Counted from the first letter of the stretch, positions 4,686 to 63,951 are shown. The stretch is DNA of 64,000 bases from Gemmatimonadales bacterium (GCA_035702425.1 DASSQQ010000102.1:6747-70746); one strand, 5' to 3'. Made by a program: numbers and translations. Notes: generated by a model from the sequence alone, not told the origin.

Positions 4686-4734
4686 AGGCGCGAAAGATAG
4701 GCCGTCGAACCTTGCCTCCGCCAGCGATCAGCAG

Positions 4735-5295
4735 GTGGTGCACTGGGCGAAACAAGGTCACGACGCCGCGTTCCGGGAGCTGGTGCGCCGCTACGAGCGC
4801 CCGGTGTTCTCGCTGCTCTATCGGATGGTGCGCGATCGCGCGCTGGCCGAGGACCTGGCGCAGGAAACGTTCATCAAGGTGCTGAACGGGATCCGGTCCT
4901 ACAATCCGGAATTCAAGTTCTCGTCGTGGATCTTCAAGATCGCGAACAACGCGGCCATCGATCACCTGCGCAAGCGCTCGATCGAAACGCTGTCACTCGA
5001 CGGCTCGCCCCACGCCCGCACGCCGGACGAAATCGAGGCCACCACCATCCAGCTCGGCGACCACGCCGAAAGCCCGCTCGATGAAGTGGAAGCACGGGAG
5101 CTGGGCGGCGCGATCGAGCGTGCCATCGCGAGACTGCGCCCGGAGTACCGGGCCTGCATCATGCTGCGGCACGTGGAGGGGTACGCGTACGAGGAAATCG
5201 CGGAAATGCTGGAGCTGCCGCTCGGAACCGTGAAGACCTACATCCACCGGGCCCGCAACGAATTGCGGGGCTATCTCGAGGACCGCCGCAACTGA
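4735..5295 (+). CDS. ECF-type RNA polymerase sigma factor (sigma-70 family)
   Basis: 186 aa with region 2 (FRELVRRYERPVFSLLYRMV..AEDLAQETFIKV) and a region 4 HTH (YEEIAEMLELPLGTVKTYIHRARNELR). The start is GTG. Confidence 0.9.
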   Translation: MVHWAKQGHDAAFRELVRRYERPVFSLLYRMVRDRALAEDLAQETFIKVLNGIRSYNPEFKFSSWIFKIANNAAIDHLRKRSIETLSLDGSPHARTPDEIEATTIQLGDHAESPLDEVEARELGGAIERAIARLRPEYRACIMLRHVEGYAYEEIAEMLELPLGTVKTYIHRARNELRGYLEDRRN

Positions 5296-5590: not shown

Positions 5591-6301
5591 GAGGCGCGCC
5601 GCGCTGCCGTCGCGCACGGCGACCTCCACGGTGCCGGCGCTCCCCACGTACGCCAGCAGCTGACCCCGCTCCACGTCGCCGAAGGTCCGGCGCAGGGGTC
5701 CCACGTCCGTCCCCTCGACCTTGATCCGCACGCCCGGCTCCACCGCCTCCCCCGCGATGTTCGACACCAGGGTCCCGAAACGATCCACGTAGATCACCTC
5801 GCCGACGGTGACGGGGCCGTCGGCGTGGGGAGTGGGGAGCGGGACCTTGAGCGGATCGCTCACGATCTGCCCCAGCTGCTCGAGCGACGCGCCGCGGGCG
5901 AGGCGCGCGGCCGCGGGCGCGAAGACGTCGCGCCCGTGAAAGGTCGGCGAGGCGTCGGCCGGAATGGGCAGCGACGCGAAGCGCGCGCCCGGCGGGAGCG
6001 CGGTGAGCAGGCCGTTGTCGGGGGCGACGAACGCGTGGCCCTCCGCGGTCGCGGCCAGCGCCCGGCGGTCGGTGCCGACACCGGGATCCACCACCACCAC
6101 GTGCACGGTCCCGTTCGGGAAGCGATGCCAGGTGCGCGCCAGGATGAACTGCGCCGCCCGCACGTCGCCCGGCGGAATCTGGTGCGTGATGTCCACCACC
6201 GTCGCGCCGGGGACCGCCGCGAGCAGCACGCCTTTCATCTCGCCGACGTAGCTGTCGCCGGTGCCGAAGTCGGTCAGCAGCGTGATGAGGGACGTGGTCA
6301 T
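5555..6301 (-). CDS. SAM hydroxide adenosyltransferase / SAM hydrolase family protein (DUF62)
   Basis: Track ORF 5555..8146 trimmed to ATG 6301, which forms an ATGA overlap with the MATE stop. The protein is 248 aa with LLTDFGTGDSYVGEMKGV and VVVVDPGVGT motifs of the DUF62 / chlorinase-fluorinase superfamily. Confidence 0.85.
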   Translation of the reverse strand: MTTSLITLLTDFGTGDSYVGEMKGVLLAAVPGATVVDITHQIPPGDVRAAQFILARTWHRFPNGTVHVVVVDPGVGTDRRALAATAEGHAFVAPDNGLLTALPPGARFASLPIPADASPTFHGRDVFAPAAARLARGASLEQLGQIVSDPLKVPLPTPHADGPVTVGEVIYVDRFGTLVSNIAGEAVEPGVRIKVEGTDVGPLRRTFGDVERGQLLAYVGSAGTVEVAVRDGSAARLLGVGVGGQVRA

Positions 6302-7641
6302 ACCGTGCTCCTCCGCCACGCCCCGCTCCGCCAGAATCCCGTCATCGCGACGCCGCGCAGGACGGCCGTGGACGACAGCGCGATCCAGATCCCCAGGAGC
6401 CCGATGGTCCGGGACCACCAGGCCGAGAGCGGCACCCGGAGGCCCGAGAGCGAGACGCTCGTGATCTGGGGCCAGAAGGTGTAGCCGGCGCCGGCGAGCG
6501 CGCCCTCGAGAATGATCTCGAAGGTCTGCCCCACCTGCGCGAACGCGATCACCCGCAGATACCAGCTCCCGTCCCTGATGACGGCCGGGTCGGTGGTGAA
6601 CAGGCCGGCGAGGGTGCGCGGCACCAGCAGGAAGATCACCGCGGTGGTGACCGTCACCAGCAGGCAGTAGCGCACGGTGAGGCGGACCGCGTCCCGGGCC
6701 CGATCCTCCAGTCCCGCGCCCAGGTTCTGCCCCACCAGGGCCCCGGCCGAGAGCGCGAATCCCGAGATGGCGATGAACCCCAGGCCCTCGACCTTGTGTC
6801 CGATCCCGAGCGCGGCGAGCGCGCTGGTGCCGAAGCGGGACGTGAACCGGGTGAGCCACATGTAGATCAGCGAGAACAGCACGCCGTTCAGCGAGATCGG
6901 CGCCCCGATCCGCATGATGGTGGGGATGGCGCGCCAGTCGGGCGCGGAGAGACGGATCAGCCCGCGGCGCAGCGCGATCGCCACGCCGATCAGGCATCCT
7001 CCCCCCCGCACCATCACCGAGGCCACCGCCGCGCCCTCCACTCCCAGTCGCGGGAAGGGCCCGAGCCCCGCGATCAAGAGCGGGTCCAGCAGGATCGAGA
7101 GGGCCACCGACGTCAACAGGAGCAGGAACGGGGTGCGGGTGTCCCCGGAGGCGCGGAAGGTCGCCTCGATCGCGAAGAAGCCGAAGACCAGCGGACCCCC
7201 GAGGAGCCAGGTGGAGAGGTACGCTTTCCCGAGTACGGCCACTTCCGGAGGCACCGTCATCAACCGGAAGAGCGAAGGGCCGAAGAGCATTCCCACCGCG
7301 CTCACCACGCTTCCCGCGAGGAGCGCGTACGCGAGCGCCGCCGCCGCCGCGCGGGCGGCGGGTTCCGGGGAGCCTTCCCCGTGCCGCCGGGCCGCCAGCG
7401 CGATGAGCCCCACCTCGACCATTTCGCCCAGCGAGAGGAGCACCCAGGTGTAGAAGCCGGCGGTGGACACCGCGGCCAGCGCCGCGGGCCCGATGAGCCG
7501 GCCCACCCAGATGCTGTCGATCAGGTTGAACGAGAAATGACAGGCCATCATCGCGACCGCGGGAGCCGCGAGCCGCAGGATCACCGGCCGCAGGGGGCCG
7601 ACGGTGAGCGCCCCGGGACTTCGCGGGGTGGTGACGGTCAT
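6298..7641 (-). CDS. MATE-family efflux transporter
   Basis: Track ORF trimmed to ATG 7641 (ATGA overlap). The protein is 447 aa with 12 hydrophobic segments and a typical MATE/NorM layout. Confidence 0.9.
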   Translation of the reverse strand: MTVTTPRSPGALTVGPLRPVILRLAAPAVAMMACHFSFNLIDSIWVGRLIGPAALAAVSTAGFYTWVLLSLGEMVEVGLIALAARRHGEGSPEPAARAAAAALAYALLAGSVVSAVGMLFGPSLFRLMTVPPEVAVLGKAYLSTWLLGGPLVFGFFAIEATFRASGDTRTPFLLLLTSVALSILLDPLLIAGLGPFPRLGVEGAAVASVMVRGGGCLIGVAIALRRGLIRLSAPDWRAIPTIMRIGAPISLNGVLFSLIYMWLTRFTSRFGTSALAALGIGHKVEGLGFIAISGFALSAGALVGQNLGAGLEDRARDAVRLTVRYCLLVTVTTAVIFLLVPRTLAGLFTTDPAVIRDGSWYLRVIAFAQVGQTFEIILEGALAGAGYTFWPQITSVSLSGLRVPLSAWWSRTIGLLGIWIALSSTAVLRGVAMTGFWRSGAWRRSTV

Positions 7642-8390
7642 GGCCCGGGGTCCGGCACGCGCGCGAGAAAGCGCTGGAAGACCGGGTTGCCGGGGTAACG
7701 CGAGGCGAGGCCCTCCACGTACCCGCGGGCCTCGCGCCGGAGGGCGGGGTTCGGCGGATCGCGCTTCGCCTCCCGCTCGAGCGCCGCCGCGAGCACCCAG
7801 GTGGCCTCGACCCGCGCCAGATCGCCTCCGGTCGCCGCGCGCCGCAGCTCGACCAGCGCGGTGTCCGCGTTGCCGCTCCCCAGCCCGACGAGCCTCGCGA
7901 AAAAGCGCGCCAGTCCGCCGGCGCGGGCCAGACCGTATTCGTACACGCCGAGCCCGAGGTAGCAATCCACGCAGGAGGAATCGGCGGCGAGCACCAGCCG
8001 GTAGGCGTCGCGCATCGCCTTGCCGTCCTTGGCGGCGGAGAACGCGTGGCCGTGGAGGTCGCGCTGGCGCGCGCGGTAGCCCAGCGCGGTGCCCAGCCAG
8101 AACTCGGTGACCGGGCCGGGGGCGAGGGCGCGGGCGCGGCGGACACCGGCGTCGAGAAGCGAATCGATGCGGTTCCGCTCGAAGTCGTCCGAATCCTTGG
8201 CGGCGGCCCACCAGATGTAGGCGCCGGCCTCGAAGATCAACGGGGCGGGATCGGCCGTGTCGCGGGCGGCGAGGGTCTCGAAGTAGCGGCCCGCTTCGCC
8301 GAACGCGCCGGCGTACAGGGTGTCGAGTCCGGCCCGCAGATCGGGACGCGCCGGACCCTGCAGAAGAAGGAAGGCGGCGAGGAGCCGCAC
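7638..8390 (-). CDS. Hypothetical secreted all-alpha (TPR-like) protein
   Basis: 250 aa with a hydrophobic N-terminus and no motif I recognise. Its operon position (1-nt gap upstream, 4-nt overlap downstream) and its composition support coding. Confidence 0.55.
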   Translation of the reverse strand: MRLLAAFLLLQGPARPDLRAGLDTLYAGAFGEAGRYFETLAARDTADPAPLIFEAGAYIWWAAAKDSDDFERNRIDSLLDAGVRRARALAPGPVTEFWLGTALGYRARQRDLHGHAFSAAKDGKAMRDAYRLVLAADSSCVDCYLGLGVYEYGLARAGGLARFFARLVGLGSGNADTALVELRRAATGGDLARVEATWVLAAALEREAKRDPPNPALRREARGYVEGLASRYPGNPVFQRFLARVPDPGP

Positions 8391-8391
8391 G

Positions 8392-9498
8392 TCAGCGGCC
8401 GGGGCCCCGGGCCGGCGCGGGACCCAGCGCCAGCGCCACCGCGCGGGCCAGCTCCGCGAGCGCCGCTCCGGCCGGCGAATCGGGCTCGGCGGACACGATG
8501 GGCCGCCCGCCGTCGGCGAGCTGCGGGAGCTGGGCCTGGAGCGGCACCTGCGCGAGGAGCGGCACGCCCAGCTCCTCCGCCAGCCGCTTCCCGCCGCCGG
8601 AGAGGAAAAGCTCGGTGCGCTCGCCGCAGTGGGGGCAGACGTAGTAGCTCATGTTCTCGACCACTCCCAGCACCCGCACCCCCACCCGCTCGAACATCTT
8701 GGCGCCGCGGAGCGAGTCCCCCACCGCGACCTCCTGCGGGGTGGTCACGATCAGCGCGCCGTGGAGATGGATGGTCTGGGCGAGCGAGAGCTGGGCGTCG
8801 CCGGTGCCGGGCGGGAGGTCCACGATCAGGTAATCGAGCTCGCCCCACGCCACGTCGCGCAGGAATTGCTGGATCACCTTCATGATGATCGGTCCGCGCC
8901 AGATCGCCGGGGCCTCGCGCTCCACGATGAACCCCAGGGACATGAGCTTCACGCCGTGGCTCTCGAGGGGCTGGATCTTGCCGCCCGAAACTTCCGGCTT
9001 GCCGTCCACGCCCATCATCCGCGGGATGTTGGGCCCGTAGATGTCGGCGTCCATGAGGCCGACCCGGTGGCCCTGGCGCCGCAGCGCCACCGCGAGGTTG
9101 ACGGAGACGGTGGACTTCCCCACCCCGCCCTTGCCCGACGAAACCGCGAGCACCGAGCCCAGCGCCGGCATCTCCTCCGGGGTGGGCGGAGGAGGCACGG
9201 CGCCGCGAGGTGCGTGGGGCGCGGCGCGTGGGGCGCCCGCACCGGCGCCCGCGCCCTCGGTCACGCTCACGCGGACGCCGGACACGCCGGCGACGCCCTG
9301 GGCCGCCTTGCGGGCGTCGCGCGCCAGCGAGGGCGGGTCGTCGCGGGAGAGCAGGAAGGTGAAGGTGACGCCGCCATCCGCGGCCACGGCGAGGTCCGCC
9401 ACCATGCCGGCGCTGACGACGTTCTGTCCGACGCGGGGATTGGTGACGGTGGCGAGCGCGGCGCGAACGCGCTCGAGCAGATCGGCGGCGGCGGGCAC
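8392..9498 (-). CDS. apbC: Fe-S cluster carrier ATPase, Mrp/ApbC/NBP35 family
   Basis: 368 aa with an N-terminal DUF59-like domain, the deviant P-loop SGKGGVGKSTVSVNLA, and the CPHCG motif. Confidence 0.9.
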   Translation of the reverse strand: MPAAADLLERVRAALATVTNPRVGQNVVSAGMVADLAVAADGGVTFTFLLSRDDPPSLARDARKAAQGVAGVSGVRVSVTEGAGAGAGAPRAAPHAPRGAVPPPPTPEEMPALGSVLAVSSGKGGVGKSTVSVNLAVALRRQGHRVGLMDADIYGPNIPRMMGVDGKPEVSGGKIQPLESHGVKLMSLGFIVEREAPAIWRGPIIMKVIQQFLRDVAWGELDYLIVDLPPGTGDAQLSLAQTIHLHGALIVTTPQEVAVGDSLRGAKMFERVGVRVLGVVENMSYYVCPHCGERTELFLSGGGKRLAEELGVPLLAQVPLQAQLPQLADGGRPIVSAEPDSPAGAALAELARAVALALGPAPARGPGR

Positions 9499-53095: not shown

Positions 53096-54280
53096 CTACC
53101 CGCCGATCAATCCGGCGCGGACCGGGCGCAACAGCGGCGCGAGCGTGAGCGCGGCACCGGCCGCGGCGCTGGCCGCGAAGGCGGTCGCCCCTCCCGCCTG
53201 CTGATAGAGCACCCCGATCGCGACACCCCCCGCGAGCGCGGCGAGCCCGGTCCACCCGTGGTAACTGCCGAACCCCGATCCCTGCCTCGCGCCCGCGAGC
53301 CGCGCCACCAGCGCCCGCTCCGGACTTTCGGTGAGCCCCGCCACGATCCCCATCGCGAGGAAGCACCCCCAGGCGCCCGGCGCGGTGCGGGCCAACGCGA
53401 ACGCCGCCGCCACCAGGGCGTACGCCGTCCACCCCAGCCACATGGTGCGGCCCGCGCCCAGCCGGTCGGTGCGCGCGCCCCCCACCACGCTCGAGGCCGA
53501 GCGCACCACGTGAACCGCGGCCCACAAGAGGGGAACCGCCGCGACCGGCACGCCCAGGTCCTGCGAGCGCAGAATGATCAGCGCGTCGGGGACCCGGAGG
53601 AGATAGAAGGCGGGGATGAGAACACCGACGGTAGGCCGGTAAGACGGAAGGGAAATGGGAACTGCGGTGTCATCCGCTTTCCGTCCTGCCGTCTTGCCGT
53701 CGCCGTTGTCCTTCACTCCCACCGCCCACATCGCGAGCACCACCACCACCACGCCGGGCACGATGCTGGCGCCGATCACCGCGCGCAGGTTGACCCGGTG
53801 CGACGCGAGCAACGCCCAGGCCACGAGGGGGCCGAGCACGGCGCCGGCGTGGTCGAACGCGCGCTGCAGGCCGAAGGCGCGGCCCCGCTGGTCGGGAGAC
53901 GTCGCGTCCGCGATGAGCGCGTCCCGGGGCGGAGTCCGGATTCCCTTCCCCACCCGGTCCACCACCCGGAGTCCGATCACCTGCCACGCCGCGCCGGTGA
54001 TGGCGATGACCGGCCGCACCACCACCGCGATGGCGTACCCCAGCACCACCAGCCGGCCCCGCCGCGCGACGCGATCCGCGAGCTTGCCGGCCTGAAACTT
54101 GACGATCGCCGCGGCGAAATCGGCCGCGCCGTCCAGGGTGCCGAGCGCGGCCGCGCCGCCTCCCAGCACCGCGGTGACGAACGCGGGGAGCAGCGGGTAG
54201 ATCATCTCGCTCGCGAAATCGTTGAAGAGCGAGACCGCCGACAGGAGCTTGACCTGCCGCGGGAGCCGGGCGCCGCTCAC
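53096..54280 (-). CDS. MFS transporter
   Basis: Track ORF trimmed to GTG 54280 (GTGA overlap). The protein is 394 aa with 12 hydrophobic segments and an MFS loop motif (DRVGKGIRTPPRDA). Confidence 0.85.
   Translation of the reverse strand: MSGARLPRQVKLLSAVSLFNDFASEMIYPLLPAFVTAVLGGGAAALGTLDGAADFAAAIVKFQAGKLADRVARRGRLVVLGYAIAVVVRPVIAITGAAWQVIGLRVVDRVGKGIRTPPRDALIADATSPDQRGRAFGLQRAFDHAGAVLGPLVAWALLASHRVNLRAVIGASIVPGVVVVVLAMWAVGVKDNGDGKTAGRKADDTAVPISLPSYRPTVGVLIPAFYLLRVPDALIILRSQDLGVPVAAVPLLWAAVHVVRSASSVVGGARTDRLGAGRTMWLGWTAYALVAAAFALARTAPGAWGCFLAMGIVAGLTESPERALVARLAGARQGSGFGSYHGWTGLAALAGGVAIGVLYQQAGGATAFAASAAAGAALTLAPLLRPVRAGLIGG
53637..53699. repeat. Palindromic repeat element, copy B, in-frame within the MFS gene
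   Basis: aagacggaagggaaa (53641-55) pairs imperfectly with ctttccgtcctgccgtctt (53677-95), and the stem extends to 53637 / 53699. It is near-identical to the right arm of the element at 27877-27905. Confidence 0.5.
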
Positions 54281-55890
54281 GCCAGACCGAGGCCCCAGCG
54301 AATCAGCGAGACGGGGAGACCGCCGTAGGGAAGGATCGCGTCGTGGAAGCGGCGGAGGGTGAACGCGCCGCCGTCGCGCGCCTTGAAGTCGTCGCGGAGG
54401 GCGAGCAGCTCGCGCCGGCCCACCGCGTAACACAACGGATACCCGGGGCCGGCGCAGTAGCGCCGCACCTCGGCCTCGGCGTTGGCGCGGTCCACGTGCA
54501 GGGTATCCACGATGTAGTCCACGGCCTGCGCGAACGTCATCCCCCGGGTGTGGAGCCCGACGTCCAGGAGCACCCGCACCGCCCGCCACAGGAGATGCAC
54601 CCGCTGGAAGAACCGCTCTTCCTCCGAAGCGTAGAACCCCTCGTCCGCCATCATGTCCTCGCAGTACAGCGCCCAGCCCTCGACGGTGAGCGGCGTCCAG
54701 AGATTCTTCCGGACGTCGGACGCCTGGGCCTGGGCCGTGACCAGCTGGAGATGATGCCCCGGGTAACCCTCGTGCAGGGCGGTGGCGGCGATCTCGTAGC
54801 GGCAGTGGTCGCGCAGCATCCGCTCCCGCCGCTCCGGCGACAGCGCGCCGTCCGGGACCGTCACGTAGAAAATGCCGCGCCGGTCGCTCGAGTACTGACC
54901 GGGACACTCGTAGGCGGCGAAGGGGATGAGGGGCCGCATGAACTCCGGCGTCGCGACGACCTCGAGCGGCGCGTCCGGCACCCGCGCCAGCCCGCGCATC
55001 GACACGAATTCCCGCGCCCGCACCATCTCGGTGGCGTACGCGTCCACCAGGATCCGCTCCCCGGGGTGATCGGCGCGCAGCCGCTCGGCGACCGTGGCCC
55101 ACGCCCCGCCGCCCAGGCGCCGGGCCCGCGTCGCGAGGTCGCTCTCGAGCTCGTCCTTCAGGTGGAGCCCGTAGCGCCAGAGCTCGGGCGCGGTATCGCG
55201 CAGGGCGTGCTCGTAGTGGAGCCGGAAGTTGAACGCCTCCTCCCCGATCGCGAAGTCGTCGCTGCCGGCGTCGAGCCAGCGGGCCAGGTCCTGATCGAGC
55301 GCCTGGAGCGCCGCCCGGGCTCCCGCCGCCGCGGCCGCGAGGCGCTCCCGGTGCGCGGGGGCGGCCGCTCCCAGCGCGCCCGCGACCTCGGCGATCAGCT
55401 CCTTGCCCCCGGCGCTCATCCGGACCGCGGTCTCCGCGAACACCCGCACCGGGGAGGTGAGCGTGGCGCGCGCGTCGTCCAGGAACGCCGGGACATCCTC
55501 CAGCCGTCCCGCGAGCGCCAGCGCCTTCTGGTCCGGGGTCCGGTCCTTCCGCACCAGGAGGACGTGAAGTCCGGACAGCAGATGGGAAAGCCAGAACTCG
55601 GGGCTCGCGGCCTGGGGGCGCTCCTTCTCGAAGCGGCGGAGGGTGACGCGGATTTCGTTCAGGAGCGCGGTGCGATCGATCTCGTCGTCGAGCGCCGAGA
55701 CCGCGGCCTCCTCCAGCGCCGACGCGATGGACTTGAGCGCCGCGAGGTGCGGGGTCAGCGCGGTGGCCCCGAAACGCCCGAAGCGGGCGTCGTGATCGGT
55801 GACGCCCGCCTGACTCGCTCCCACCGGATCCATGTGCCAGCGGAGATCGAAGTAGGAGCGCTCGAGCTCCCGGAACGCGCTTACCGCCAT
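54277..55890 (-). CDS. DUF885-family protein (metallopeptidase-like)
   Basis: The start is ATG 55890. The protein is 537 aa with the HEGYPGHH motif characteristic of DUF885. Confidence 0.8.
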   Translation of the reverse strand: MAVSAFRELERSYFDLRWHMDPVGASQAGVTDHDARFGRFGATALTPHLAALKSIASALEEAAVSALDDEIDRTALLNEIRVTLRRFEKERPQAASPEFWLSHLLSGLHVLLVRKDRTPDQKALALAGRLEDVPAFLDDARATLTSPVRVFAETAVRMSAGGKELIAEVAGALGAAAPAHRERLAAAAAGARAALQALDQDLARWLDAGSDDFAIGEEAFNFRLHYEHALRDTAPELWRYGLHLKDELESDLATRARRLGGGAWATVAERLRADHPGERILVDAYATEMVRAREFVSMRGLARVPDAPLEVVATPEFMRPLIPFAAYECPGQYSSDRRGIFYVTVPDGALSPERRERMLRDHCRYEIAATALHEGYPGHHLQLVTAQAQASDVRKNLWTPLTVEGWALYCEDMMADEGFYASEEERFFQRVHLLWRAVRVLLDVGLHTRGMTFAQAVDYIVDTLHVDRANAEAEVRRYCAGPGYPLCYAVGRRELLALRDDFKARDGGAFTLRRFHDAILPYGGLPVSLIRWGLGLA

Positions 55891-57113
55891 GCGGCCTGCT
55901 TCAGGAGGCGATGGCACTCCTCGTCGGAGAGCGCGCGGTCCGCTTTCTTCGCGGCGGCGAAGAGCGCCTGACACGCCGCTTCATCCGCGGGATCGTAGCC
56001 GTGCGCCTCGAGCCAGTACTTCACGTTGGAGAGCCCGGAGACCGGCGTGATCTCGATCTTCTGCGACAGGCCCAGCTCGCCCGCGGGCACCGAGCTGTAA
56101 ATCCGGTCGGCGAGCCAGGCGTCTCCCTTTTTCCGGGCCTTGATGATCGCCGCGGCGTGCACCCCGGTGCCGGTGCGGAACGCGTCCGCACCCAGCACCG
56201 GATAATTCGCGGGGATGGGCATCCCCACCGCGTCGGCGGTGACCCGGCAGTACTCGGGGAGCTTCGAGAGATCGTGCCGGTGCGCGCCAAGGAGCTTCAG
56301 GTTGACGATCAGAAGATCCATCTCCGCGTTGCCCACGCGCTCCCCCACGCCCAGCGCCGTCGCGTGCACCCGGTCCACGCCCGCTTCGATCGCGGTGAGG
56401 CAGTTGATCACGCCCATCCCGCGGTCCCGGTGCCCGTGCCAGTCGATCTTCACGTTCTGTTTCTTGACGATGTCTTTCTTGACGAAGTCGATCAGGGCTC
56501 TCACGCCGTCCGGTGTCGCGTGACCCACCGTGTCCGCGAGGCAGATTCGCGTGGCCCCGCAGTCGATCGCCGCGCCGTAGAGCGCCTTCAGCGTTTCCGG
56601 CTTGGCGCGGGTGGTGTCTTCGGTGACGTACATGCAGGGGAGCCCGTGCCGCACCGCGAAGGTGACCGCTTCCTCGGTCGCCTGGAGCATCCGGTCCAGG
56701 GTCCAGTCCTCGGCGTACTGGCGGATGGGCGAGGAGCCGATGAAGGTCGCGGCTTCGATCTTCATCCCCAGCTCTTCGGAGATCCGGACGATCGGCTCCA
56801 GGTCCGCGATCACGGTGCGCGCGGCGCAGTTGGGCGCGATGGGGAGCTTGGCGTCGCGGATTTCGCTGGCCAGCATCCGCACCTGCTCCACCACCCGCGG
56901 TCCCGCCCCCGGAAGCCCGATGTCCGCGGCCACGATGCCCAGGTCCGCCATCAGGTGCAGGAGGCGGCGCTTCACGTCGGGCGAGGGATCCTTGACCGAT
57001 GGGGACTGGAGGCCGTCGCGCAGGGTTTCGTCGTTCAGGTCCACGCGCGCGCGGGTCCAATCGAACGTGGCGCCCAGTCTGTTCCAGTCGTGGATCAGCT
57101 CGCGCTCGTCCAT
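55881..57113 (-). CDS. 2-isopropylmalate / homocitrate synthase family enzyme (DRE-TIM metallolyase, short form)
   Basis: 410 aa with LNDETLRDGLQSP, ICLADTVGHATP and IDWHGHRDRGMG motifs. It has no long C-terminal LeuA regulatory domain. Confidence 0.8.
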   Translation of the reverse strand: MDERELIHDWNRLGATFDWTRARVDLNDETLRDGLQSPSVKDPSPDVKRRLLHLMADLGIVAADIGLPGAGPRVVEQVRMLASEIRDAKLPIAPNCAARTVIADLEPIVRISEELGMKIEAATFIGSSPIRQYAEDWTLDRMLQATEEAVTFAVRHGLPCMYVTEDTTRAKPETLKALYGAAIDCGATRICLADTVGHATPDGVRALIDFVKKDIVKKQNVKIDWHGHRDRGMGVINCLTAIEAGVDRVHATALGVGERVGNAEMDLLIVNLKLLGAHRHDLSKLPEYCRVTADAVGMPIPANYPVLGADAFRTGTGVHAAAIIKARKKGDAWLADRIYSSVPAGELGLSQKIEITPVSGLSNVKYWLEAHGYDPADEAACQALFAAAKKADRALSDEECHRLLKQAAWR

Positions 57114-57131
57114 GACGAAAACTAGTCACGA

Positions 57132-57203
57132 AGAGGCGAAGAGGCGAAGGTGCGGCAGGGGCGAACCCGCTCCGCCCCTTCGCCTCTCGGCCCCTTCGCC
57201 TCT
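57132..57203. repeat. Long imperfect hairpin built from 8-nt tandem repeats (AGAGGCGA) in a divergent spacer
   Basis: AGAGGCGA (57132-39) pairs with TCGCCTCT (57196-203). AGAGGCGAAGG (57140-50) pairs with CCTTCGCCTCT (57177-87). An inner GCGG / CCGC pair is at 57152-55 / 57172-75. Confidence 0.45.
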
Positions 57204-57214
57204 AGCTTTGAGTC

Positions 57215-58408
57215 GTGCCCGACCCCATCACCGCCCTTCTCACCGACGACACCGTGGCCGCGGCCCGCCACTTTCTGGAGCGGACCGACGAGGTGACCGT
57301 GGCCCGGCAGGCCGCGCTTTCCGGCGTCCCCGCGCCCACCGGGGCCGAGGGCGCCCGGGGCGCACGGGTGGCGGAGCTGTTTCGCGAGGTCGGACTCCGG
57401 GACGTCAGGACCGACGCGGTCGGCAATGTGCTGGGGCTCCTCGGGGACACGGCGGGCGGGAACGGAGACGGGTGCGTCGTGGTGGCGGCCCACCTGGACA
57501 CCGTGTTCGGCCCCGAGGTGCGGGTGGAAGTCGAGCACCGGGAGCAGCGGCTGCTCGGGCCCGGAATCTCGGACAACGCGCGCGGTCTCGCCGCCCTCGT
57601 GGCCCTCGCCGAGGCCCTCGGCCGCTCCCGGGTGCCGCTCGAGAAGCCGGTCCTCTTCGCCGCGACGGTGGGGGAGGAAGGCGCGGGAGACCTCCGGGGG
57701 GTGAAGCATCTCTTCGGGGACGGTTTCAGGCCCTCCGCGTTCATCGCGCTGGACGGCGCGGGCGCGGAGCGGATCGTCCATCGCGCGCTCGGCTCCCGGC
57801 GCTATCGCGTGACCTATCGCGGCCCCGGCGGACACTCCTGGGCCGCGTTCGGCGTCGCGAATCCGGCGAGCGCGGTGGGCCGGGCCGTGGCGGCCGTGGC
57901 GGAGCTCGAGTTTCCGGCCGAGCCGCGCACCACCTGCGCGGCGGTCCGGATCGGCGGGGGAACCGGTCTCAACTCGATTCCCCAGGAGGCGTGGCTCGAC
58001 CTCGATCTCCGCAGCGAGGATCCGGCGGCGCTGAAGGAGCTGGACAAGAAGGTGCAGGGAATTCTCAATCGCGCCGCGGACGCGGAGAACAAGCGCCGGG
58101 CGGCGGGGACTCAGCCGCTGCGCGTGGAGGCGACGCTGGTGGGCGACCGCCCCTCGGGCGTCACGCCGCGGGCGCACCCGCTGGTGCAGGCGGCGCTCCA
58201 GGCCACGCGCGCGCTGGGCAAGAGTCCCGAGCTGGCGAGCGCGTCCACCGACGCCAACGTGCCGATCGCGCGCGGCATCCCGGCCATCTGTCTCGGTGCC
58301 GGCGGAAAATCCGGCGACACCCACTTGCCCACGGAGTGGTACGAGAACGAGGAGGGCGTGACGGGCCTGGTGCGCGCGATGCTGGTGGTGTGCGCGATGG
58401 GGCGCTAG
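57215..58408 (+). CDS. M20/M25/M40-family metallohydrolase (peptidase T / ArgE-like)
   Basis: 397 aa with AAHLDTV, GISDNARG and VGEEGAGDL metal-ligand blocks. The start is GTG. Confidence 0.85.
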   Translation: MPDPITALLTDDTVAAARHFLERTDEVTVARQAALSGVPAPTGAEGARGARVAELFREVGLRDVRTDAVGNVLGLLGDTAGGNGDGCVVVAAHLDTVFGPEVRVEVEHREQRLLGPGISDNARGLAALVALAEALGRSRVPLEKPVLFAATVGEEGAGDLRGVKHLFGDGFRPSAFIALDGAGAERIVHRALGSRRYRVTYRGPGGHSWAAFGVANPASAVGRAVAAVAELEFPAEPRTTCAAVRIGGGTGLNSIPQEAWLDLDLRSEDPAALKELDKKVQGILNRAADAENKRRAAGTQPLRVEATLVGDRPSGVTPRAHPLVQAALQATRALGKSPELASASTDANVPIARGIPAICLGAGGKSGDTHLPTEWYENEEGVTGLVRAMLVVCAMGR

Positions 58409-59241
58409 CCCACCTCCACCATCCCCACGTCTTTCGTCAAGAGCACCCGGTTCCGCGCGTATTCCCCGCTCTGTCCCCGCGCCGGGCGCGCGAACAGCGA
58501 GACCTGCCGCACTTCGTCGTCCGGAAGAATGGCGCCGATCTTGCCGCCCGAGCCCAGCGCGAAGTGCACACAGCTGAACGCGAAGGCGAGGCGCTTCACG
58601 CCCTTGAAGGTCAAGTCGGTCCCGCCGGTCGTCGAAACGGTGACGCCCGCCGAGGCACCGAGCGCGGCCTGCACTCCGGGCACGTCGAACCGGAACGAGG
58701 GGTCCGAGGTCCGGTCGGCCACGATGGTGAAGTCGGGACTCGTGATCACGGAGTCGATCACGAGAAACGCGTAGGGCGCGTCTTTCCCGAAGAAGATGGA
58801 CGCCGCGGGGTTGCGGCGGTCTACGGCGCGCCCCTCGAGCGCCTTCCCCAGCGCGTCGAGATCCACCCAGCTCCGCGCCACGTCGCGGAAACTGTAGGAC
58901 ACCTGACGCACGCCCTGGAACTTGGCGTCGAGCCCGGCCGATCCCGCGCCCAGCCCGGTCAGGAACCCGGCGAGCACCTGGAGGCCGAGCGAGAGGTCCA
59001 CGCTCTTGGTCTTCTTGCCGGAGAGATCGGGCAGCTGGGACCGCGCCGCCGGCGGGAACTGGGGAGCCGCGCCCTGGAGCAGGTCGCCCAGCGCGCCGCG
59101 GAACGACGCGCGGTCTCCGGCCGCCGCGAGAACGGCCAGCGGCTGGTACCGCTCCTCGGGCACCCGCAGGATGTTGGCCCCGAAGACATCGCGCAGGGTC
59201 CCGACCACCGGATCGTCCGAGCAGAGACCGAGAACACTCAC
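58405..59241 (-). CDS. Bacterial gasdermin (bGSDM)-like protein
   Basis: Track ORF 58405..59388 trimmed to GTG 59241, which forms a GTGA overlap with the upstream stop. The protein is 278 aa. An N-terminal Cys (MSVLGLC) and the blocks ILRVPEERYQPLAVL, PDLSGKKTKSVDLSLGLQVLAGFLTGLGAGSAGLDAKF, VSYSFRDV, YAFLVIDSVITSPDFTIVA, FDVPGVQAALGASAGVTVS and LTFKG.KRLAFAFSCV follow the bGSDM pattern as I remember it. Confidence 0.55.
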   Translation of the reverse strand: MSVLGLCSDDPVVGTLRDVFGANILRVPEERYQPLAVLAAAGDRASFRGALGDLLQGAAPQFPPAARSQLPDLSGKKTKSVDLSLGLQVLAGFLTGLGAGSAGLDAKFQGVRQVSYSFRDVARSWVDLDALGKALEGRAVDRRNPAASIFFGKDAPYAFLVIDSVITSPDFTIVADRTSDPSFRFDVPGVQAALGASAGVTVSTTGGTDLTFKGVKRLAFAFSCVHFALGSGGKIGAILPDDEVRQVSLFARPARGQSGEYARNRVLLTKDVGMVEVG

Positions 59242-59921
59242 CGCGCCCTCCACCTCCCGGGCAGGTATCCCACGAACCCGGCGATCACGAAGGCCCAGAG
59301 CACCCGCGGCGCGAACGTCACCGCGAAGATCAGCGCTCCCGCCCCGAAGATCCACATCGCGAGCTCGCCGGCAATCGCCTGGCCCCACTCCGGCGCCGCG
59401 CCCGAGGCCGGGAGCCGCGGGGCGAGTGACGGAACGAGGGACGGCACCGCCCGCCGATAGGATAGATAGCGCTCCCCCTGCGCCCGCTCCAGCTCCGCTT
59501 CCTCCCGACCGATCAGCCGCAGCACGAAGACCACCATCAGGACCACCAGCGCCGCCGCGCCCAACCGCGACGCGAGGGGCGCGAACCCCACCGCGAGGAG
59601 GATGGTGCCGAGGTAAAGCGGGTTCCGCACATGGCGGTAGGGTCCGTCCGCCACCACCCGCTCGGCGTGCAGGTCGCGGTCCTTCACCACCGCGGTCCTC
59701 AAGTACGCCGCGGCCCAGGTGCGCAACGCGGCCGCGAGCAACACCAGCACCGCGCCCGCGCCGAGGATCAGATGAACGTTGCGCGCGCCATCGCCGCCCA
59801 TCGGGGCCGCGATCGCCCGGGCGGCGTTGACGTGGTCCACGCGGTACAGGAAAAACGCCAGCGCGAAGAGCGGGGCGATGATCCAGAACCGGTGGCGGAA
59901 CTCGAATTCCGTCGCCTTCAT
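59238..59921 (-). CDS. ICMT/PEMT-family membrane methyltransferase
   Basis: 227 aa with about 5 TM. It carries the signature ADGPYRHVRNPLYLGTILL of isoprenylcysteine carboxyl / phospholipid methyltransferase families. Confidence 0.8.
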   Translation of the reverse strand: MKATEFEFRHRFWIIAPLFALAFFLYRVDHVNAARAIAAPMGGDGARNVHLILGAGAVLVLLAAALRTWAAAYLRTAVVKDRDLHAERVVADGPYRHVRNPLYLGTILLAVGFAPLASRLGAAALVVLMVVFVLRLIGREEAELERAQGERYLSYRRAVPSLVPSLAPRLPASGAAPEWGQAIAGELAMWIFGAGALIFAVTFAPRVLWAFVIAGFVGYLPGRWRAR

Positions 59922-59952
59922 GTCCCGAAGGGCGAGGCGTTCGGCCTCGCGG

Positions 59953-61539
59953 TCAGTGCGCCATCCCCGGGTCCGCCGCCGCGCCCAGCTTGGGCGGATG
60001 CATGAACAGCAGGAGCACCAGGGACAGCACGAAGATCGCTCCGAAGAGCATGAACAGCTGCTCGAAGGACAGCATCATCGCCTGCTTCTGGACCATGCCG
60101 TTCATCACCATCAGCGCTTTCTGCTGCGCGACCGGCGCCGGCGTTCCCGCCGCGATCATGCCGTTGGTGATGGCGTAGAGCCGGTCCCGCGCCACGTCCG
60201 AGTACATCGAGAGGTGGGCGACGAGGTCCGCCCGGTGCGTGGCCGTGAAATGCTGGACCAGCGTCGCCGAGATCGCGATCCCCATGCTCCCGCCCAGCTG
60301 CCGCATCAGATTGAAGAGGCCGGTGCCGTTCGCGATCTTGGAGAGCGGCATGTCCGCGAGAGCCAGGTTGGTGAGGGGCACGAAGATCAGCCCCAGGCCC
60401 ACGCCGCGGAAAATCAGCGGCCAGAAGAAGTCCCGCATTCCGGAATCGGTGGTGAAGTGGGCGTGCTTCCACATCGCCAGCGCGAAGATCGCCACCCCCG
60501 CCACGATCGAGAGCCGGGCGTCGAATTTCCCGTGGGTGCGCCCCATGATCGCCATGGTGAACGCCGAGGCCAGCGCCCCGGGCAGGATCACGAATCCGGT
60601 CTGCTCCGCCGAGAAGTTCAGGAGGTTCTGCAGGTAGACCGGGAGCACGAACACCGTGGCGTAGAGACAGACCCCGAGCACCGCGCCGAAGATCACGCCG
60701 ACCGTGAGTTGTCGGCTCTTCAGGATGGTGAGATCCACGATGGGATAGGGCGTCGTCAGCTCGTGCCACACGAAGCCCACGAGGGCCGCCCCGCTCACCA
60801 CCGCGTAGAAGATCACCTCGCGGGAATCGAACCAGTCGAGCCGCTCCCCGCGCTCCAGCATGGTCTGCAGCAGGCCGATCCCCACCGCGAGCAGTCCCAG
60901 GCCGATGTAGTCCACCTTGGTCTGGCGGATGGCGTGCTCCGAATCGGTGATGAAGGTGAGCGTCATCGCCAGGGCGAACATCCCGATGGGGATGTTGATG
61001 TAGAAAATCCACGGCCAGCCGAAGGCGTCGGTGATGTAGCCGCCGAGCGTGGGCCCGAGGGTGGGCCCGACCATCACGCCCATCCCGAAGATCGCCATCG
61101 CCGTGCCGAACTCTTCCTTCGGGAATTCCTCGTAGAGGATGGCCTGGGAGGTGGAGAGCAGCGCGCCGCCGCCCAGCCCCTGGATGATGCGCATCAGCAC
61201 CAGCATCTCCAGCGAATGGGCGTTGCCGCAGAAGAACGACGCCACGGTGAAGATGGCGATCGAGCTCGCGAAATAGCGCCGCCGCCCGAAGTACGCCGAG
61301 AGCCACCCGGTGATGGGCAGCACGATGACGTTGGCGACGATGTAGCCGGTCGAGACCCAGGCGATCTGATCCAGCGTCGCGCCCAGGTTCCCCATCATGT
61401 GGGGAATGGCGACGTTCACGATGCTGGTGTCCAGAAGCTCCAGCACCGACGCCATCGAGACCGTGATGGCAATCAGGTACTTGTAGCGGTACCGGTCCGG
61501 CGCGACGGCGCCGGGAAACGGAAGAACGGCGGTGGCCAC
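59953..61539 (-). CDS. emrB: DHA2-family MFS efflux transporter (EmrB/QacA type, 14 TM)
   Basis: 528 aa with LDTSIVNVAIPHM and GRRRYFASSIAIFTVASFFCG motifs. Confidence 0.9.
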   Translation of the reverse strand: MATAVLPFPGAVAPDRYRYKYLIAITVSMASVLELLDTSIVNVAIPHMMGNLGATLDQIAWVSTGYIVANVIVLPITGWLSAYFGRRRYFASSIAIFTVASFFCGNAHSLEMLVLMRIIQGLGGGALLSTSQAILYEEFPKEEFGTAMAIFGMGVMVGPTLGPTLGGYITDAFGWPWIFYINIPIGMFALAMTLTFITDSEHAIRQTKVDYIGLGLLAVGIGLLQTMLERGERLDWFDSREVIFYAVVSGAALVGFVWHELTTPYPIVDLTILKSRQLTVGVIFGAVLGVCLYATVFVLPVYLQNLLNFSAEQTGFVILPGALASAFTMAIMGRTHGKFDARLSIVAGVAIFALAMWKHAHFTTDSGMRDFFWPLIFRGVGLGLIFVPLTNLALADMPLSKIANGTGLFNLMRQLGGSMGIAISATLVQHFTATHRADLVAHLSMYSDVARDRLYAITNGMIAAGTPAPVAQQKALMVMNGMVQKQAMMLSFEQLFMLFGAIFVLSLVLLLFMHPPKLGAAADPGMAH

Positions 61540-61546
61540 GGAACGC

Positions 61547-62617
61547 CTACTTGGTGGTGATCGTGACCACGACGCTCATGCCGGGACGCAGCGGCTTGGC
61601 CGGATCGTTGGGCCGGTCCAGCCCGATCCGCACCGGGAGCCGCTGCACCACCTTGGTGAAATTCCCGGTGGCGTTGTCCGGTGGGAGCAGGGAGAACTTC
61701 GCGCCGGTCGCCGGGGAGAGACTCTCCACGTGGCCGGCGAAGTGCACGCCCGGATACGCGTCCACCGTGATGTCCGCCGGGTCCCCGGGGGTGACGTCGG
61801 TGATCTGCGTCTCCTTGAGGTTCGCTTCCACCCAGATGTTGTCGAGCGGCACCACGGTCATCAGCGGCTGGCCCGCCTGCACCAGCTGGCCCACCTCCAC
61901 GTTCTTCTTGCTCACCACGCCGCCGGTGGGCGCGGTGATGCGGGTGTAGGAGAGGTTCAGCGCCGCCTGATCGCGCGCGGCGCGCGCCGCCGCCACCCGG
62001 GCGTCCGCGCCGGCGAGCGCGGCCTGCGCCTGCGCCAGACCGGCGTCCGCCGCCGCGGCCGCGGCTTCGGCCGCGTCGAGCTGCTGCTTGGAGACGATGT
62101 CCTGATCGGCGAGGGGCCGCAGCCGGTCGAGATCGGCGTGCGCCTTCTGCGCGTTGGCCTGCGCCTGCGCCACCGCCGCGTCGGCCTGGCCCACCCGGGT
62201 CTTCGAGCTCACGGTCGCGAGCAGAGCGACCAGGTCGGCGTTGGCCTGGGTGAGGCGGACCTGGAAGTCGCGGTCGTCCAGCACCACCAGGGTGTCCCCC
62301 GCCCGCACCGGCTGGTTGTCCCGTACCCGGACCTCGGAGACGAACCCGCCCACCTTGGGCAGGACCGGGATGACGTGCCCGTCCACCTGGGCGTCATCGG
62401 TGGTCTGGTGGGAGAGGCCGTAGATGTAGCGCTTGGCCCCGAAGCCCAGCAGCAACACCAGGAGCACGCCCATCGCCGCGAAGACCACGCGGCGGCGGCC
62501 CCCGGGGGCCGGGGCTTCCTGGACCTGGGGCTCGGAGGCGCGCGCCGCGGGGGCGGAGCCGCCCTTCGCCTTGGTTTCCGGTTCGATCGTCGTCGCCATA
62601 TCCCGTGGTTCCTTCAT
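61547..62617 (-). CDS. HlyD/EmrA-family membrane fusion protein
   Basis: 356 aa with a single N-terminal TM, a coiled-coil hairpin (AQANAQKAHADLDRL...), and barrel-sandwich blocks (TITAPTGGVV). Confidence 0.9.
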   Translation of the reverse strand: MKEPRDMATTIEPETKAKGGSAPAARASEPQVQEAPAPGGRRRVVFAAMGVLLVLLLGFGAKRYIYGLSHQTTDDAQVDGHVIPVLPKVGGFVSEVRVRDNQPVRAGDTLVVLDDRDFQVRLTQANADLVALLATVSSKTRVGQADAAVAQAQANAQKAHADLDRLRPLADQDIVSKQQLDAAEAAAAAADAGLAQAQAALAGADARVAAARAARDQAALNLSYTRITAPTGGVVSKKNVEVGQLVQAGQPLMTVVPLDNIWVEANLKETQITDVTPGDPADITVDAYPGVHFAGHVESLSPATGAKFSLLPPDNATGNFTKVVQRLPVRIGLDRPNDPAKPLRPGMSVVVTITTK

Positions 62618-62628
62618 TCGTTGAATGT

Positions 62629-63951
62629 CTAGTGCAGTGTCCGCGCCACGCCCACCGCGCGCGCCAGGGTCACGCGCGCGAGCAGCACCGAGGCCCGGGC
62701 ATCAATCACGGCGTCCCGCGCCTGGATCAGCGAGGACTGCGCGTCAATCACTTCGATGTTTCCCGCCACGCCCGCGGTAAAACGCTGGCGCGCTTCCGAG
62801 AGTTCGTCTGCCGCGAGCTGGAGGCGCTCCGCGGCGATCGCGACCTGCGCCTCCGCCGAGCGAAGATCGAGGAACGCGCCCGCCACGTCGGCGGCGATCT
62901 GCTGCCGCAGGTCCTCCGCCCGCACCGCGGAGGAGCGCACCGCGACGTCGGCCTCGGCGATTTCGCCTTCGCGGCGGAATCCGTCGAGGATCGGGAGCGA
63001 CACCTCGAGCGCGATCTGCCGCGTCGGGATGGAGCCGGGGACGGTGATGCCGCTGGACCCGTAGTCGGCCTCGAGCCCGACGCTCGGCAGCCGCTGGGCG
63101 GAGAACGAACTTCTCACCCGCCGCGCCGCCTCCCCCGCCGCCGTGGTGGCCGCGAGATCGGGACGGCGGGAGAGCGCCACCGCCACCGCCGAGTCCTCCG
63201 TTGCCGGCACCTCGGCCTGACCGATCGCGCTGCCCAGCGTGTCGGCCAGCTCGATCGGCGTGGAGGCCGGGAGGCCGAGGGCGCGGGCCAAGTCCATGCG
63301 TCCGCGATCGGCCTGGTTCCGGGCCACGATGAGTCCGCCTTCGGCGGACACCAGCTGGGTCTGGGCGCGGGTGACGTCGATGGCCGCGGAGACGCCGGCC
63401 TTGTTCTGCGCCTTCGCGAGGCCCACCAGCTCCACCGCGAGGGCGGAGTCGGCGCGCCGCGCGCTCACCGTGGCCTCGGCCCGGAGCGCGCGCACGTAGG
63501 CGAGGGCGGCGGCCTCTGCCGCGGTCTCCGAAGTCACGGTTCCCGCCGCGGCCACGGCTTCGGTGCCGCTCTGCGCCGCTTTCACCCGGGAGTAGGCCGA
63601 GAAGTCGAACAGCGTCTGGCGCACGGTGAAGCGCGCGTCGTAGACGTTGAAGGGTCCGATCAGCTGCGGGATCACCACCGGACCCGGGAACTTGAAGCCG
63701 AAGGTCTGGCTGTTGAAGGTGCGGTTCACCCAGCTTCCGCCGAGCGACAGGTTGGGCAGCAGGGTGGCGCGGGTCTCGCGCACCCGGGCGGACGCGGAGT
63801 CGACGCGCAGGGCGGCGAGCCGGACCGCCGGAGCGGTGCCCGCGGCGCGGGAGACGGCGTCGCCGAAGGTGAGCCGGACCGGCGCGGGAGTCTGCGCCGC
63901 GAGGGACGCCGGCAGCACGAGCGCGGCGGCGAGGAACAGCGATCTACGCAT
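62629..63951 (-). CDS. TolC-family outer membrane efflux protein
   Basis: 440 aa with a signal peptide and the two-repeat OEP architecture with long helical segments. Confidence 0.9.
   Translation of the reverse strand: MRRSLFLAAALVLPASLAAQTPAPVRLTFGDAVSRAAGTAPAVRLAALRVDSASARVRETRATLLPNLSLGGSWVNRTFNSQTFGFKFPGPVVIPQLIGPFNVYDARFTVRQTLFDFSAYSRVKAAQSGTEAVAAAGTVTSETAAEAAALAYVRALRAEATVSARRADSALAVELVGLAKAQNKAGVSAAIDVTRAQTQLVSAEGGLIVARNQADRGRMDLARALGLPASTPIELADTLGSAIGQAEVPATEDSAVAVALSRRPDLAATTAAGEAARRVRSSFSAQRLPSVGLEADYGSSGITVPGSIPTRQIALEVSLPILDGFRREGEIAEADVAVRSSAVRAEDLRQQIAADVAGAFLDLRSAEAQVAIAAERLQLAADELSEARQRFTAGVAGNIEVIDAQSSLIQARDAVIDARASVLLARVTLARAVGVARTLH

Follow-up and report, generated by a model that had tools for sequence, protein, structure and literature searches.

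An orphan bacterial gasdermin gene beside a conserved efflux cluster in a Gemmatimonadales bacterium

A stretch of 64,000 nucleotides from a Gemmatimonadales bacterium (GCA_035702425.1, DASSQQ010000102.1:6747-70746), hereafter referred to as the window and numbered from its first letter, encodes on its minus strand a bacterial gasdermin (bGSDM), a pore-forming suicide protein, of 278 amino acids (58405-59241; GTG start, TAG stop), directly downstream of a gene for a membrane methyltransferase. A first-pass annotation made from the sequence alone had read the two overlapping genes as a gasdermin module without a protease, in which the methyltransferase is the dedicated partner. Comparison with related contigs and with other gasdermin loci points to a different reading, namely that the gene probably encodes an orphan bGSDM, which is released by C-terminal cleavage, and stands as one additional gene where a TolC-HlyD-MFS efflux cluster, otherwise conserved in Gemmatimonadales, has its variable 3' end. 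Judged by synteny, the methyltransferase and the M20-type gene on the other side of the gasdermin are backbone genes of the region and not gasdermin-specific, and the two 4-nt overlaps that the gasdermin gene has with them are features of the junctions rather than signs of a co-evolved module. The distribution of the gene among related contigs suggests that the gasdermin was gained here rather than lost elsewhere.

The gasdermin and its predicted architecture

The translation of the open reading frame (ORF) reads VSVLGLCSDD...ILRVPEERYQPLAVL...PDLSGKKTKSVDLSLGLQVLAGFLTGLGAGSAGLDAKF...YAFLVIDSVITSPDFTIVA...FDVPGVQAALGASAGVTVS...LTFKGVKRLAFAFSCV plus a tail of about 45 residues, and contains all the sequence blocks on which the first-pass annotation had based its gasdermin assignment. 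That assignment is borne out by significant matches to the PADLOC bGSDM profile (3e-60 over residues 6-248), to the NCBIfam family prok_gasdermin (NF051890; 179.7 bits against a curated cutoff of 100) and, in a phmmer search of PDB sequences, to the Vitiosangium bGSDM (8SL0, 5.9e-31; 7N51, 7.8e-31; residues 5-232), and the precomputed Pfam label of the protein in the protein database is PF26164 (Bact_GSDM). The Pfam scan of the window returned nothing for this protein because PF26164 is missing from the Pfam-A set used, and family membership is therefore taken from PADLOC, NCBIfam, the PDB and the precomputed label. The resemblance lies far beyond chance, and the 278-residue protein is a genuine bacterial gasdermin.

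A search of 5.8 billion proteins yielded 33 members of this gasdermin clade, and in their alignment all conserved columns, invariant and nearly invariant, are kept in the window protein, whose ORF is intact. The GC content of the gene (0.70) and its GC content at third codon positions (GC3, 0.90) are like those of its neighbours, and no foreign signature was found when these two measures were compared with the surrounding genes, so that a horizontal origin cannot be argued from composition. The intact ORF, the conserved columns and the neighbour-like GC3 make the gene look functional.

An AlphaFold2 model built on 33 homologues reached a mean predicted local distance difference test (pLDDT) score of 90.2 and a predicted template modelling score (pTM) of 0.89. 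Its top Foldseek match in the PDB is 7N51 (E 2.9e-20, TM 0.76/0.80), which answers the fold comparison with solved bGSDM structures that had been suggested as a check; 7N50 and 7N52 come next and are followed by eukaryotic gasdermins. All three of these bacterial entries are inactive-state crystal structures, and the model has the same autoinhibited gasdermin N-terminal-domain fold. Over the Foldseek structural alignment the protein is 28% identical to the Vitiosangium bGSDM (PDB 7N51 inactive, 8SL0/9A84 active; Johnson et al., 2022, 2024), and both have a short C-terminal peptide instead of a large C-terminal domain (CTD).

The conserved N-terminal cysteine noted in the first-pass annotation is Cys7 (codon at 59221-59223, minus strand), which through an identical GLCSD motif aligns with Cys4 of the Vitiosangium protein and is at least 90% conserved among the 33 clade members. 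Cys4 is reported to be palmitoylated and required for killing in the Vitiosangium bGSDM (PMC10153256), and by analogy Cys7 would be palmitoylated too. Further along the chain, residues 241-262 (58456-58521, minus strand) form a predicted flexible linker, with a mean pLDDT of about 50 in the blocks covering 241-260 and values below 50 at residues 252-255, in a region that is indel-rich and weakly conserved in the clade alignment. The pLDDT returns to 80-91 in residues 263-278 (58408-58455, minus strand; ending in RNRVLLTKDVGMVEVG), where a strand (273-276) packs on the core of the model and a hydrophobic motif common to the clade is found (consensus SPDRVLL...P.LL.WD). The model thus combines an exposed linker with a short C-terminal peptide and has no large CTD, as is typical of bGSDMs. 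This is the architecture of protease-activated bGSDMs, and it suggests an autoinhibitory role for the docked peptide. By analogy with the Runella (L247) and Vitiosangium (29-aa CTD) proteins, the linker (about residues 241-262) is the likely place of activating cleavage; linker and tail together are longer in the window gasdermin (about 40-46 aa) than the 29-aa CTD of Vitiosangium.

Based on this architecture, pore formation and proteolytic activation in trans can be proposed. The gasdermin would be made as an autoinhibited precursor in which the acylated Cys7 is buried and the last ~16 residues are docked on the core. Cutting of the disordered linker (around residues 241-262) would release the C-terminal peptide, and the freed gasdermin would insert into the inner membrane and oligomerise into a lethal pore. 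The cut would be made by a protease whose gene lies elsewhere in the genome or which an invader brings in.

Genomic setting and gasdermin-free relatives

The gene upstream of the gasdermin (59238-59921, minus strand) encodes a 227-residue membrane protein that carries GPYRHVRNPLYLG, the ICMT/PEMT signature recognised in the first-pass annotation, and it passes the Pfam gathering scores of both PEMT (PF04191; 34.2 bits against 25) and ICMT (PF04140; 33.2 against 24). The block RHxRNPLYxG...EE...QG..Y is invariant among nine orthologues (R96, H97, R99, N100, P101, L102, Y103, G105, E140, E141, Q148, G149 and Y152) and, judging by ICMT structures, presumably binds the methyl donor. These scores and the C-terminal motif block place the protein in the ICMT/PEMT superfamily, which includes Ste14/ICMT, phospholipid N-methyltransferases, LmtA and MddA. 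It stays far below the cutoff of every NCBIfam equivalog, however, with 35.7 bits against 160 for the isoprenylcysteine methyltransferase NF040696 (a match confined to the C-terminal 80 residues), 35.4 against 325 for LmtA and 26.5 against 270 for MddA, and the name isoprenylcysteine methyltransferase is therefore not justified; the assignment holds at the superfamily level.

The two genes are joined as GTGA (59238-59241), the GTG of the gasdermin (59241-59239) overlapping the TGA of the methyltransferase (59240-59238) just as had been noted, and the last methyltransferase codons contain a Shine-Dalgarno-like run, GGAGGG (59246-59251, minus strand), 4 nt before the GTG. Translation of the two genes is almost certainly coupled in this organism, and they are probably co-transcribed, possibly together with the efflux operon. 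The methyltransferase agrees with its orthologues as far as ...GYLPGR; beyond this point it diverges, its C-terminus being 3-4 residues shorter than those of the closest orthologues. Since this divergence is restricted to the last few codons, exactly where the Shine-Dalgarno-like run and the start of the gasdermin lie, the overlap looks like an insertion junction.

Seven syntenic contigs from related Gemmatimonadales (L023-L029) have no gasdermin. In four of them (L023, L024, L025 and L026) an orthologue of the methyltransferase (58-62% identity) nevertheless occupies the same place, downstream of the TolC, HlyD and MFS efflux genes and followed directly by HMGL-like (84-86%; degraded in L023), DUF885 (60-70%) and MFS (62-64%) genes, so that the presence of the methyltransferase at the locus does not depend on the gasdermin. 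The other three (L027-L029) have neither gasdermin nor ICMT and carry an orthologue of the M20 gene at the same position (70-72% identity); here TetR, OEP, HlyD, MFS and AhpC genes and either an adh_short gene or a 58-aa ORF converge on M20, beyond which lie divergent HMGL, DUF885 and MFS genes. Across all seven contigs the efflux operon is orthologous at 55-79% identity, and tblastn finds HMGL at 83-86% and DUF885 at 60-71%. The gasdermin is the only gene at the site without a counterpart in these relatives.

The same comparison explains the second overlap. The M20 gene converges on the gasdermin gene, as the first-pass annotation had described, and the tetranucleotide CTAG at 58405-58408 serves as stop on both strands. 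In L027-L029 the M20 gene also ends in CTAG (L027:7215-7218; L028:7200-7203), which is common to the TAG of the converging gene, and the genes that use this CTAG for their own stop are the gasdermin, a short-chain dehydrogenase and the 58-aa ORF. Because the CTAG is kept with different converging genes, the 4-nt overlap is a property of the site and not of the gasdermin. The possibility that M20 was inserted together with the gasdermin as its partner was rejected, because relatives without a gasdermin have M20 in synteny.

The slot between the efflux MFS gene and M20/HMGL (57.2-59.95 kb in the window) varies among related Gemmatimonadales and holds AhpC and adh_short, AhpC and a metallophosphoesterase remnant, AhpC, Metallophos and ICMT, ICMT alone, or ICMT and gasdermin. 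With such changing contents, the slot resembles a local hotspot of accessory genes. The 58-aa ORF of L028 and L029 was examined as a candidate remnant of a gasdermin or ICMT gene, which would have argued for loss rather than gain; it has a GHTHGGQ metallophosphoesterase-like end and no similarity to either, and was rejected.

The efflux operon of the window (59953-63951, minus strand) consists of an OEP/TolC gene (62629-63951; Pfam OEP), a gene for an HlyD-type adaptor (61547-62617; HlyD_D23/HlyD_3) and one for a DHA2-like MFS pump (59953-61539; MFS_1), and 31 nt separate the MFS stop from the methyltransferase ATG, in agreement with the earlier description. This gap (59922-59952) holds a 7-bp GC hairpin, GCGAGGC-CGAAC-GCCTCGC, without a T-run; the fold of the 51 nt around it is marginally better than that of shuffled sequences (z = -1.98), and the hairpin could attenuate read-through into the methyltransferase and gasdermin genes. 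A sigma-70 promoter scan of 56.8-64 kb found no promoter, and matches resembling intrinsic terminators occurred there at chance level.

On the other side, the M20 gene (57215-58408, plus strand) encodes a 397-residue M20/M28-family metallohydrolase (Pfam Peptidase_M20, M28 and M20_dimer), whose best NCBIfam similarity is to deacylases and exopeptidases. It is followed in the direction away from the gasdermin by an HMGL-like gene (55881-57113, minus strand) and a DUF885 gene (54277-55974, minus strand), both named from Pfam, the product of the latter containing an HEGYPGHH motif. The divergent intergenic region between M20 and HMGL (57118-57209) is filled by a palindrome of about 95 nt made of GAGGCGAAG repeats, which folds at -69 kcal/mol (z = -6.1; none of 200 shuffles as good). 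It is missing from the equivalent spacer in L027 and L028, its motif occurs elsewhere in the window no more often than by chance, and it could represent an operator or else a small repeat element that was inserted. The next ~17 kb (35.8-52.6 kb) encode ETF, acyl-CoA dehydrogenase, CstA, a metallophosphoesterase and a sortilin/BNR protein.

Neighbours of other gasdermins

Members of the clade were traced in genome, metagenome and assembly collections to 20 distinct gasdermin loci, 19 of which have readable flanks. Gene calls in most of these comparison loci are our own ORF picks, for which a GC3 filter was needed because a GC content of 70% produces spurious long ORFs; in the window, ORFs antisense or out of frame to real genes reach up to 952 aa (56602-59460 and 58922-59830, plus strand; 57122-58324, minus strand). 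Novel protease folds, moreover, are missed by Pfam.

An ICMT-like gene is found at none of the 19 other loci with readable flanks. A tblastn search of L001-L022 with the window methyltransferase matched only the window's own copies in L010 and L016, which have the same gasdermin-methyltransferase arrangement and are at least 99.6% identical to the window, and the three assemblies therefore represent one population. Neither PF04140 nor PF04191 occurs in the called genes of L011-L015 and L030, and when all ORFs up to 6 kb from the gasdermins were compared with one another, no neighbour family was shared with the window. In the closest relatives (L001 and L030; 63% identity, Gemmatimonadota) a Usp gene is followed by a gene for a multi-transmembrane protein of 270-300 aa that is 72% identical between the two loci, unrelated to ICMT, and located 10 nt upstream of the gasdermin; it has five transmembrane segments and a pilin-like C-terminus. 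A recurrent theme of an upstream membrane protein was considered and rejected, as the upstream protein of L011 is not membrane-like and the proteins are unrelated. With tblastn, no M20 gene was found beside any other gasdermin locus.

Proteases accompany some of these gasdermins. L006 of Chitinophaga agrisoli (40% identity) is a canonical system with an AAA_16/NB-ARC STAND ATPase, an EAD5-Trypsin_2 gene that overlaps the gasdermin start, and a Peptidase_C14 gene. In L004, from a Longimicrobiales metagenome-assembled genome (MAG; DASTKT010000071.1, 4505-10870; 48% identity), the gasdermin (~8001-8855) is directly followed by a Peptidase_C1 fusion of 662 aa, in which a papain-like domain (2.1e-10) is joined to a large C-terminal region, and a Peptidase_S8 subtilase with an N-terminal signal-like sequence lies upstream on the minus strand (5711-7240; 3e-32); a truncated second gasdermin copy is found at 4610-4930. 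C1-type peptidases are not among the protease types named beside bGSDMs in the text consulted. Three further loci encode HExxH proteins: L012 (51% identity) has a 395-aa HEYGH...EIEAD protein (6808-7995; weak M48 match, 8e-4) 5 nt upstream of the gasdermin, and both L008 (8844-10262) and L022 (7801-9222), whose gasdermins are 32-36% identical to that of the window, have a 472-aa HEITH protein downstream; one of the two loci comes from a Nitrospira MAG and the other from a soil contig, and their HEITH proteins are 53% identical. These three proteins are possible metalloprotease partners of their gasdermins, and no literature on a bGSDM paired with a metalloprotease was found. No recognisable protease was found at ten loci with 43-63% identity (L001, L002, L005, L011, L013, L014, L015, L018, L019 and L030). 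The first-pass annotation had stated that its module would fall if the ICMT neighbour were not conserved beside homologues that do have proteases; the ICMT neighbour is indeed not conserved, and proteases accompany some homologues (L006 and L004, with candidates in L012, L008 and L022) but not most of the closest ones.

Some of the remaining loci lie in mobile or defence surroundings. The gasdermins of L021 (224-2624) and L020 (1605-6483), at 35-39% identity, are found downstream of a common protein of ~250 aa with weak similarity to PADLOC LmuA, ahead of which L021 has a SMODS nucleotidyltransferase and L020 a DEAD/ResIII helicase, and these gasdermins may be effectors of a CBASS-like or Lamassu-like system. 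The flanks of L014 (45% identity) contain an integrase, Z1/DUF4420 genes and a patatin-like gene, and those of L015 (45% identity) contain insertion sequence transposases and a TIR-SEFIR protein, in contrast to the housekeeping setting of the window.

Within three genes of the window gasdermin there is no recognisable endoprotease, the neighbours being the methyltransferase, MFS and HlyD genes on one side and the M20, HMGL-like and DUF885 genes on the other. The first-pass annotation was thus right that no caspase-like (C14/CHAT), trypsin-like or subtilisin-like protease gene is adjacent; none occurs within about three genes on either side. A PADLOC scan of the methyltransferase, M20 and DUF885 products gave nothing, and no homologue of the partner proteins of other gasdermin loci was detected by tblastn in the whole 64-kb window when the HExxH proteins of L012 and of L008/L022, the trypsin, C14 and STAND proteins of L006, partners of the L004 type, the Nal1-like protein of L009 and the neighbours in L001, L011 and L013 were used as queries. 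The window contains no NLR/STAND sensor, and the gasdermin gene does not lie in a defence island, its flanks being the efflux operon and the HMGL-like, DUF885, MFS, sortilin/BNR, CstA, acyl-CoA dehydrogenase and ETF genes.

Activation of the gasdermin and relation to known systems

In canonical bGSDM-protease operons (Runella with a CHAT protease; Lysobacter-type operons with trypsin and a STAND ATPase; the systems of DefenseFinder and PADLOC) the effector belongs to the same family as that of the window. The layout of these operons is matched by L006, whereas the window gasdermin has no protease, no NLR/STAND sensor and no defence island around it; its surroundings are housekeeping genes for efflux and metabolism. 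The Vitiosangium gene appears among bGSDM-protease operons in the legend of Fig. S7 of the original preprint (bioRxiv 10.1101/2021.06.07.447441), in contrast to the window gasdermin. According to the same source, 43 of the 50 original bGSDMs have a neighbouring protease and seven do not (Johnson et al.), and it is these seven orphans that the window gasdermin resembles, as no protease is predicted among the three genes to its left or to its right. None of the seven is reported with an ICMT neighbour, and searches of the literature gave no paper on bacterial gasdermins together with isoprenylcysteine and none on gasdermins and Gemmatimonadota that concerned bacterial gasdermins. The locus is undescribed but not surprising, since both the family and the orphan configuration are known.

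The proposal that the methyltransferase is a dedicated partner, which would methylate either the gasdermin or the membrane lipid and thereby license or restrain the pore, has become very improbable. In its favour stand the GTGA overlap, the Shine-Dalgarno-like run within the methyltransferase gene, the lack of an adjacent endoprotease, the inner membrane as the site of action of both products and an arrangement that occurs in three assemblies, although these represent one population. The survey of homologues for ICMT adjacency that the first-pass annotation had called for does not bear this proposal out, as the gene is absent from all 19 other loci and its orthologues persist without a gasdermin in L023-L026. 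The methyltransferase also belongs to a much larger family, with at least 1945 homologues (E <= 1e-5 among 8000 candidates scored) in the same database that holds 33 members of the gasdermin clade, and it does not reach the isoprenylcysteine methyltransferase equivalog. ICMT-type enzymes esterify the free alpha-carboxylate of a C-terminal lipidated cysteine, whereas Cys7 of the gasdermin is internal, in peptide linkage and without a free carboxylate for such a reaction. Least probable of all, and in our view hardly credible, is activation by a metallopeptidase-type neighbour, either the converging M20 or the DUF885 protein two genes further. Although M20 has its stop tetranucleotide in common with the gasdermin and would count under an automated rule of a protease domain within three genes through its Pfam Peptidase_M20/M28 matches, and although the DUF885 product has its HEGYPGHH motif, orthologues of both (70-72% and 60-71%) hold the same positions in gasdermin-free relatives and no M20 gene accompanies any other gasdermin locus examined. 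The M20 family counts at least 6974 homologues (E <= 1e-20 among 8000 candidates scored) with deacylases and exopeptidases as nearest NCBIfam relatives, and enzymes of this type act as exopeptidases or amidohydrolases rather than as endoproteases that cut loops.

The remaining alternatives concern what the gasdermin does. Activation without cleavage, in which the gasdermin, and perhaps its protease-less relatives too, would be released by a cue other than proteolysis (a redox change, membrane stress or partner binding, for example), is unlikely, though it accounts for the many close homologues without a recognisable protease nearby. It would also suit a gene placed last behind an efflux operon, in a slot where relatives carry stress genes such as AhpC, and the Foldseek matches include structures of TrichoGSDM and RCD-1, eukaryotic gasdermins that are active without cleavage. 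However, a disordered linker and a docked C-terminal peptide, features typical of bGSDMs that proteases activate, are retained in the model, several aligned homologues have adjacent proteases (Trypsin_2 and C14 in L006, C1 and S8 in L004), and no bacterial precedent was found in the literature; we know of none ourselves. Somewhat less probable still is that the gasdermin is a silent passenger, recently acquired or decaying and without a current function. Such a fate would fit the sole gene at the site without a counterpart in seven syntenic relatives and without a cognate activator nearby, and the truncated copy in L004 indicates that such genes do decay; against it stand an intact 278-aa ORF that keeps every invariant and nearly invariant clade position, the high-confidence AlphaFold2 fold, the host-like GC3 of 0.90, a good Shine-Dalgarno sequence and translational coupling. 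We give a similarly low standing to a gasdermin wired into the tail of the efflux operon, whose dose would track envelope or drug stress without a dedicated neighbouring protease, with the methyltransferase maybe tuning the membrane or the gasdermin, as part of a largely protease-less subclade (at least 43% identity) with an undescribed activation route; the trigger would then be a housekeeping or phage protease or a non-proteolytic membrane cue.

The orphan bGSDM released by C-terminal cleavage remains the probable reading, and several points weigh against it. No protease candidate was identified within the 64 kb of genome viewed, which makes activation in trans an assumption, and most of the closest homologues (at least 43% identity) are likewise without recognisable proteases, so something other than a neighbouring protease may serve as trigger in part of the clade. 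The reliance on GC3-filtered ORF picks and on Pfam for the comparison loci leaves room for proteases of novel fold, the direction of the event (gain rather than loss) is read from a comparison of seven related contigs, and, on comparative data alone, the tight GTGA coupling leaves room for a local functional interaction between the gasdermin and the ICMT-family protein.

If true, the gasdermin-methyltransferase module would add a new kind of control over a gasdermin pore. The evidence points instead to an ordinary, though orphan, member of the family, whose striking overlap with the methyltransferase comes from its position. The locus offers a clean case, from the phylum Gemmatimonadota, of one gasdermin gene set among housekeeping genes that are otherwise conserved. 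Its clade, whose candidate proteases are of unusual variety (papain-like C1, subtilase S8, HExxH, trypsin and caspase) where there are any at all, bears on the question of how orphan bGSDMs are triggered.

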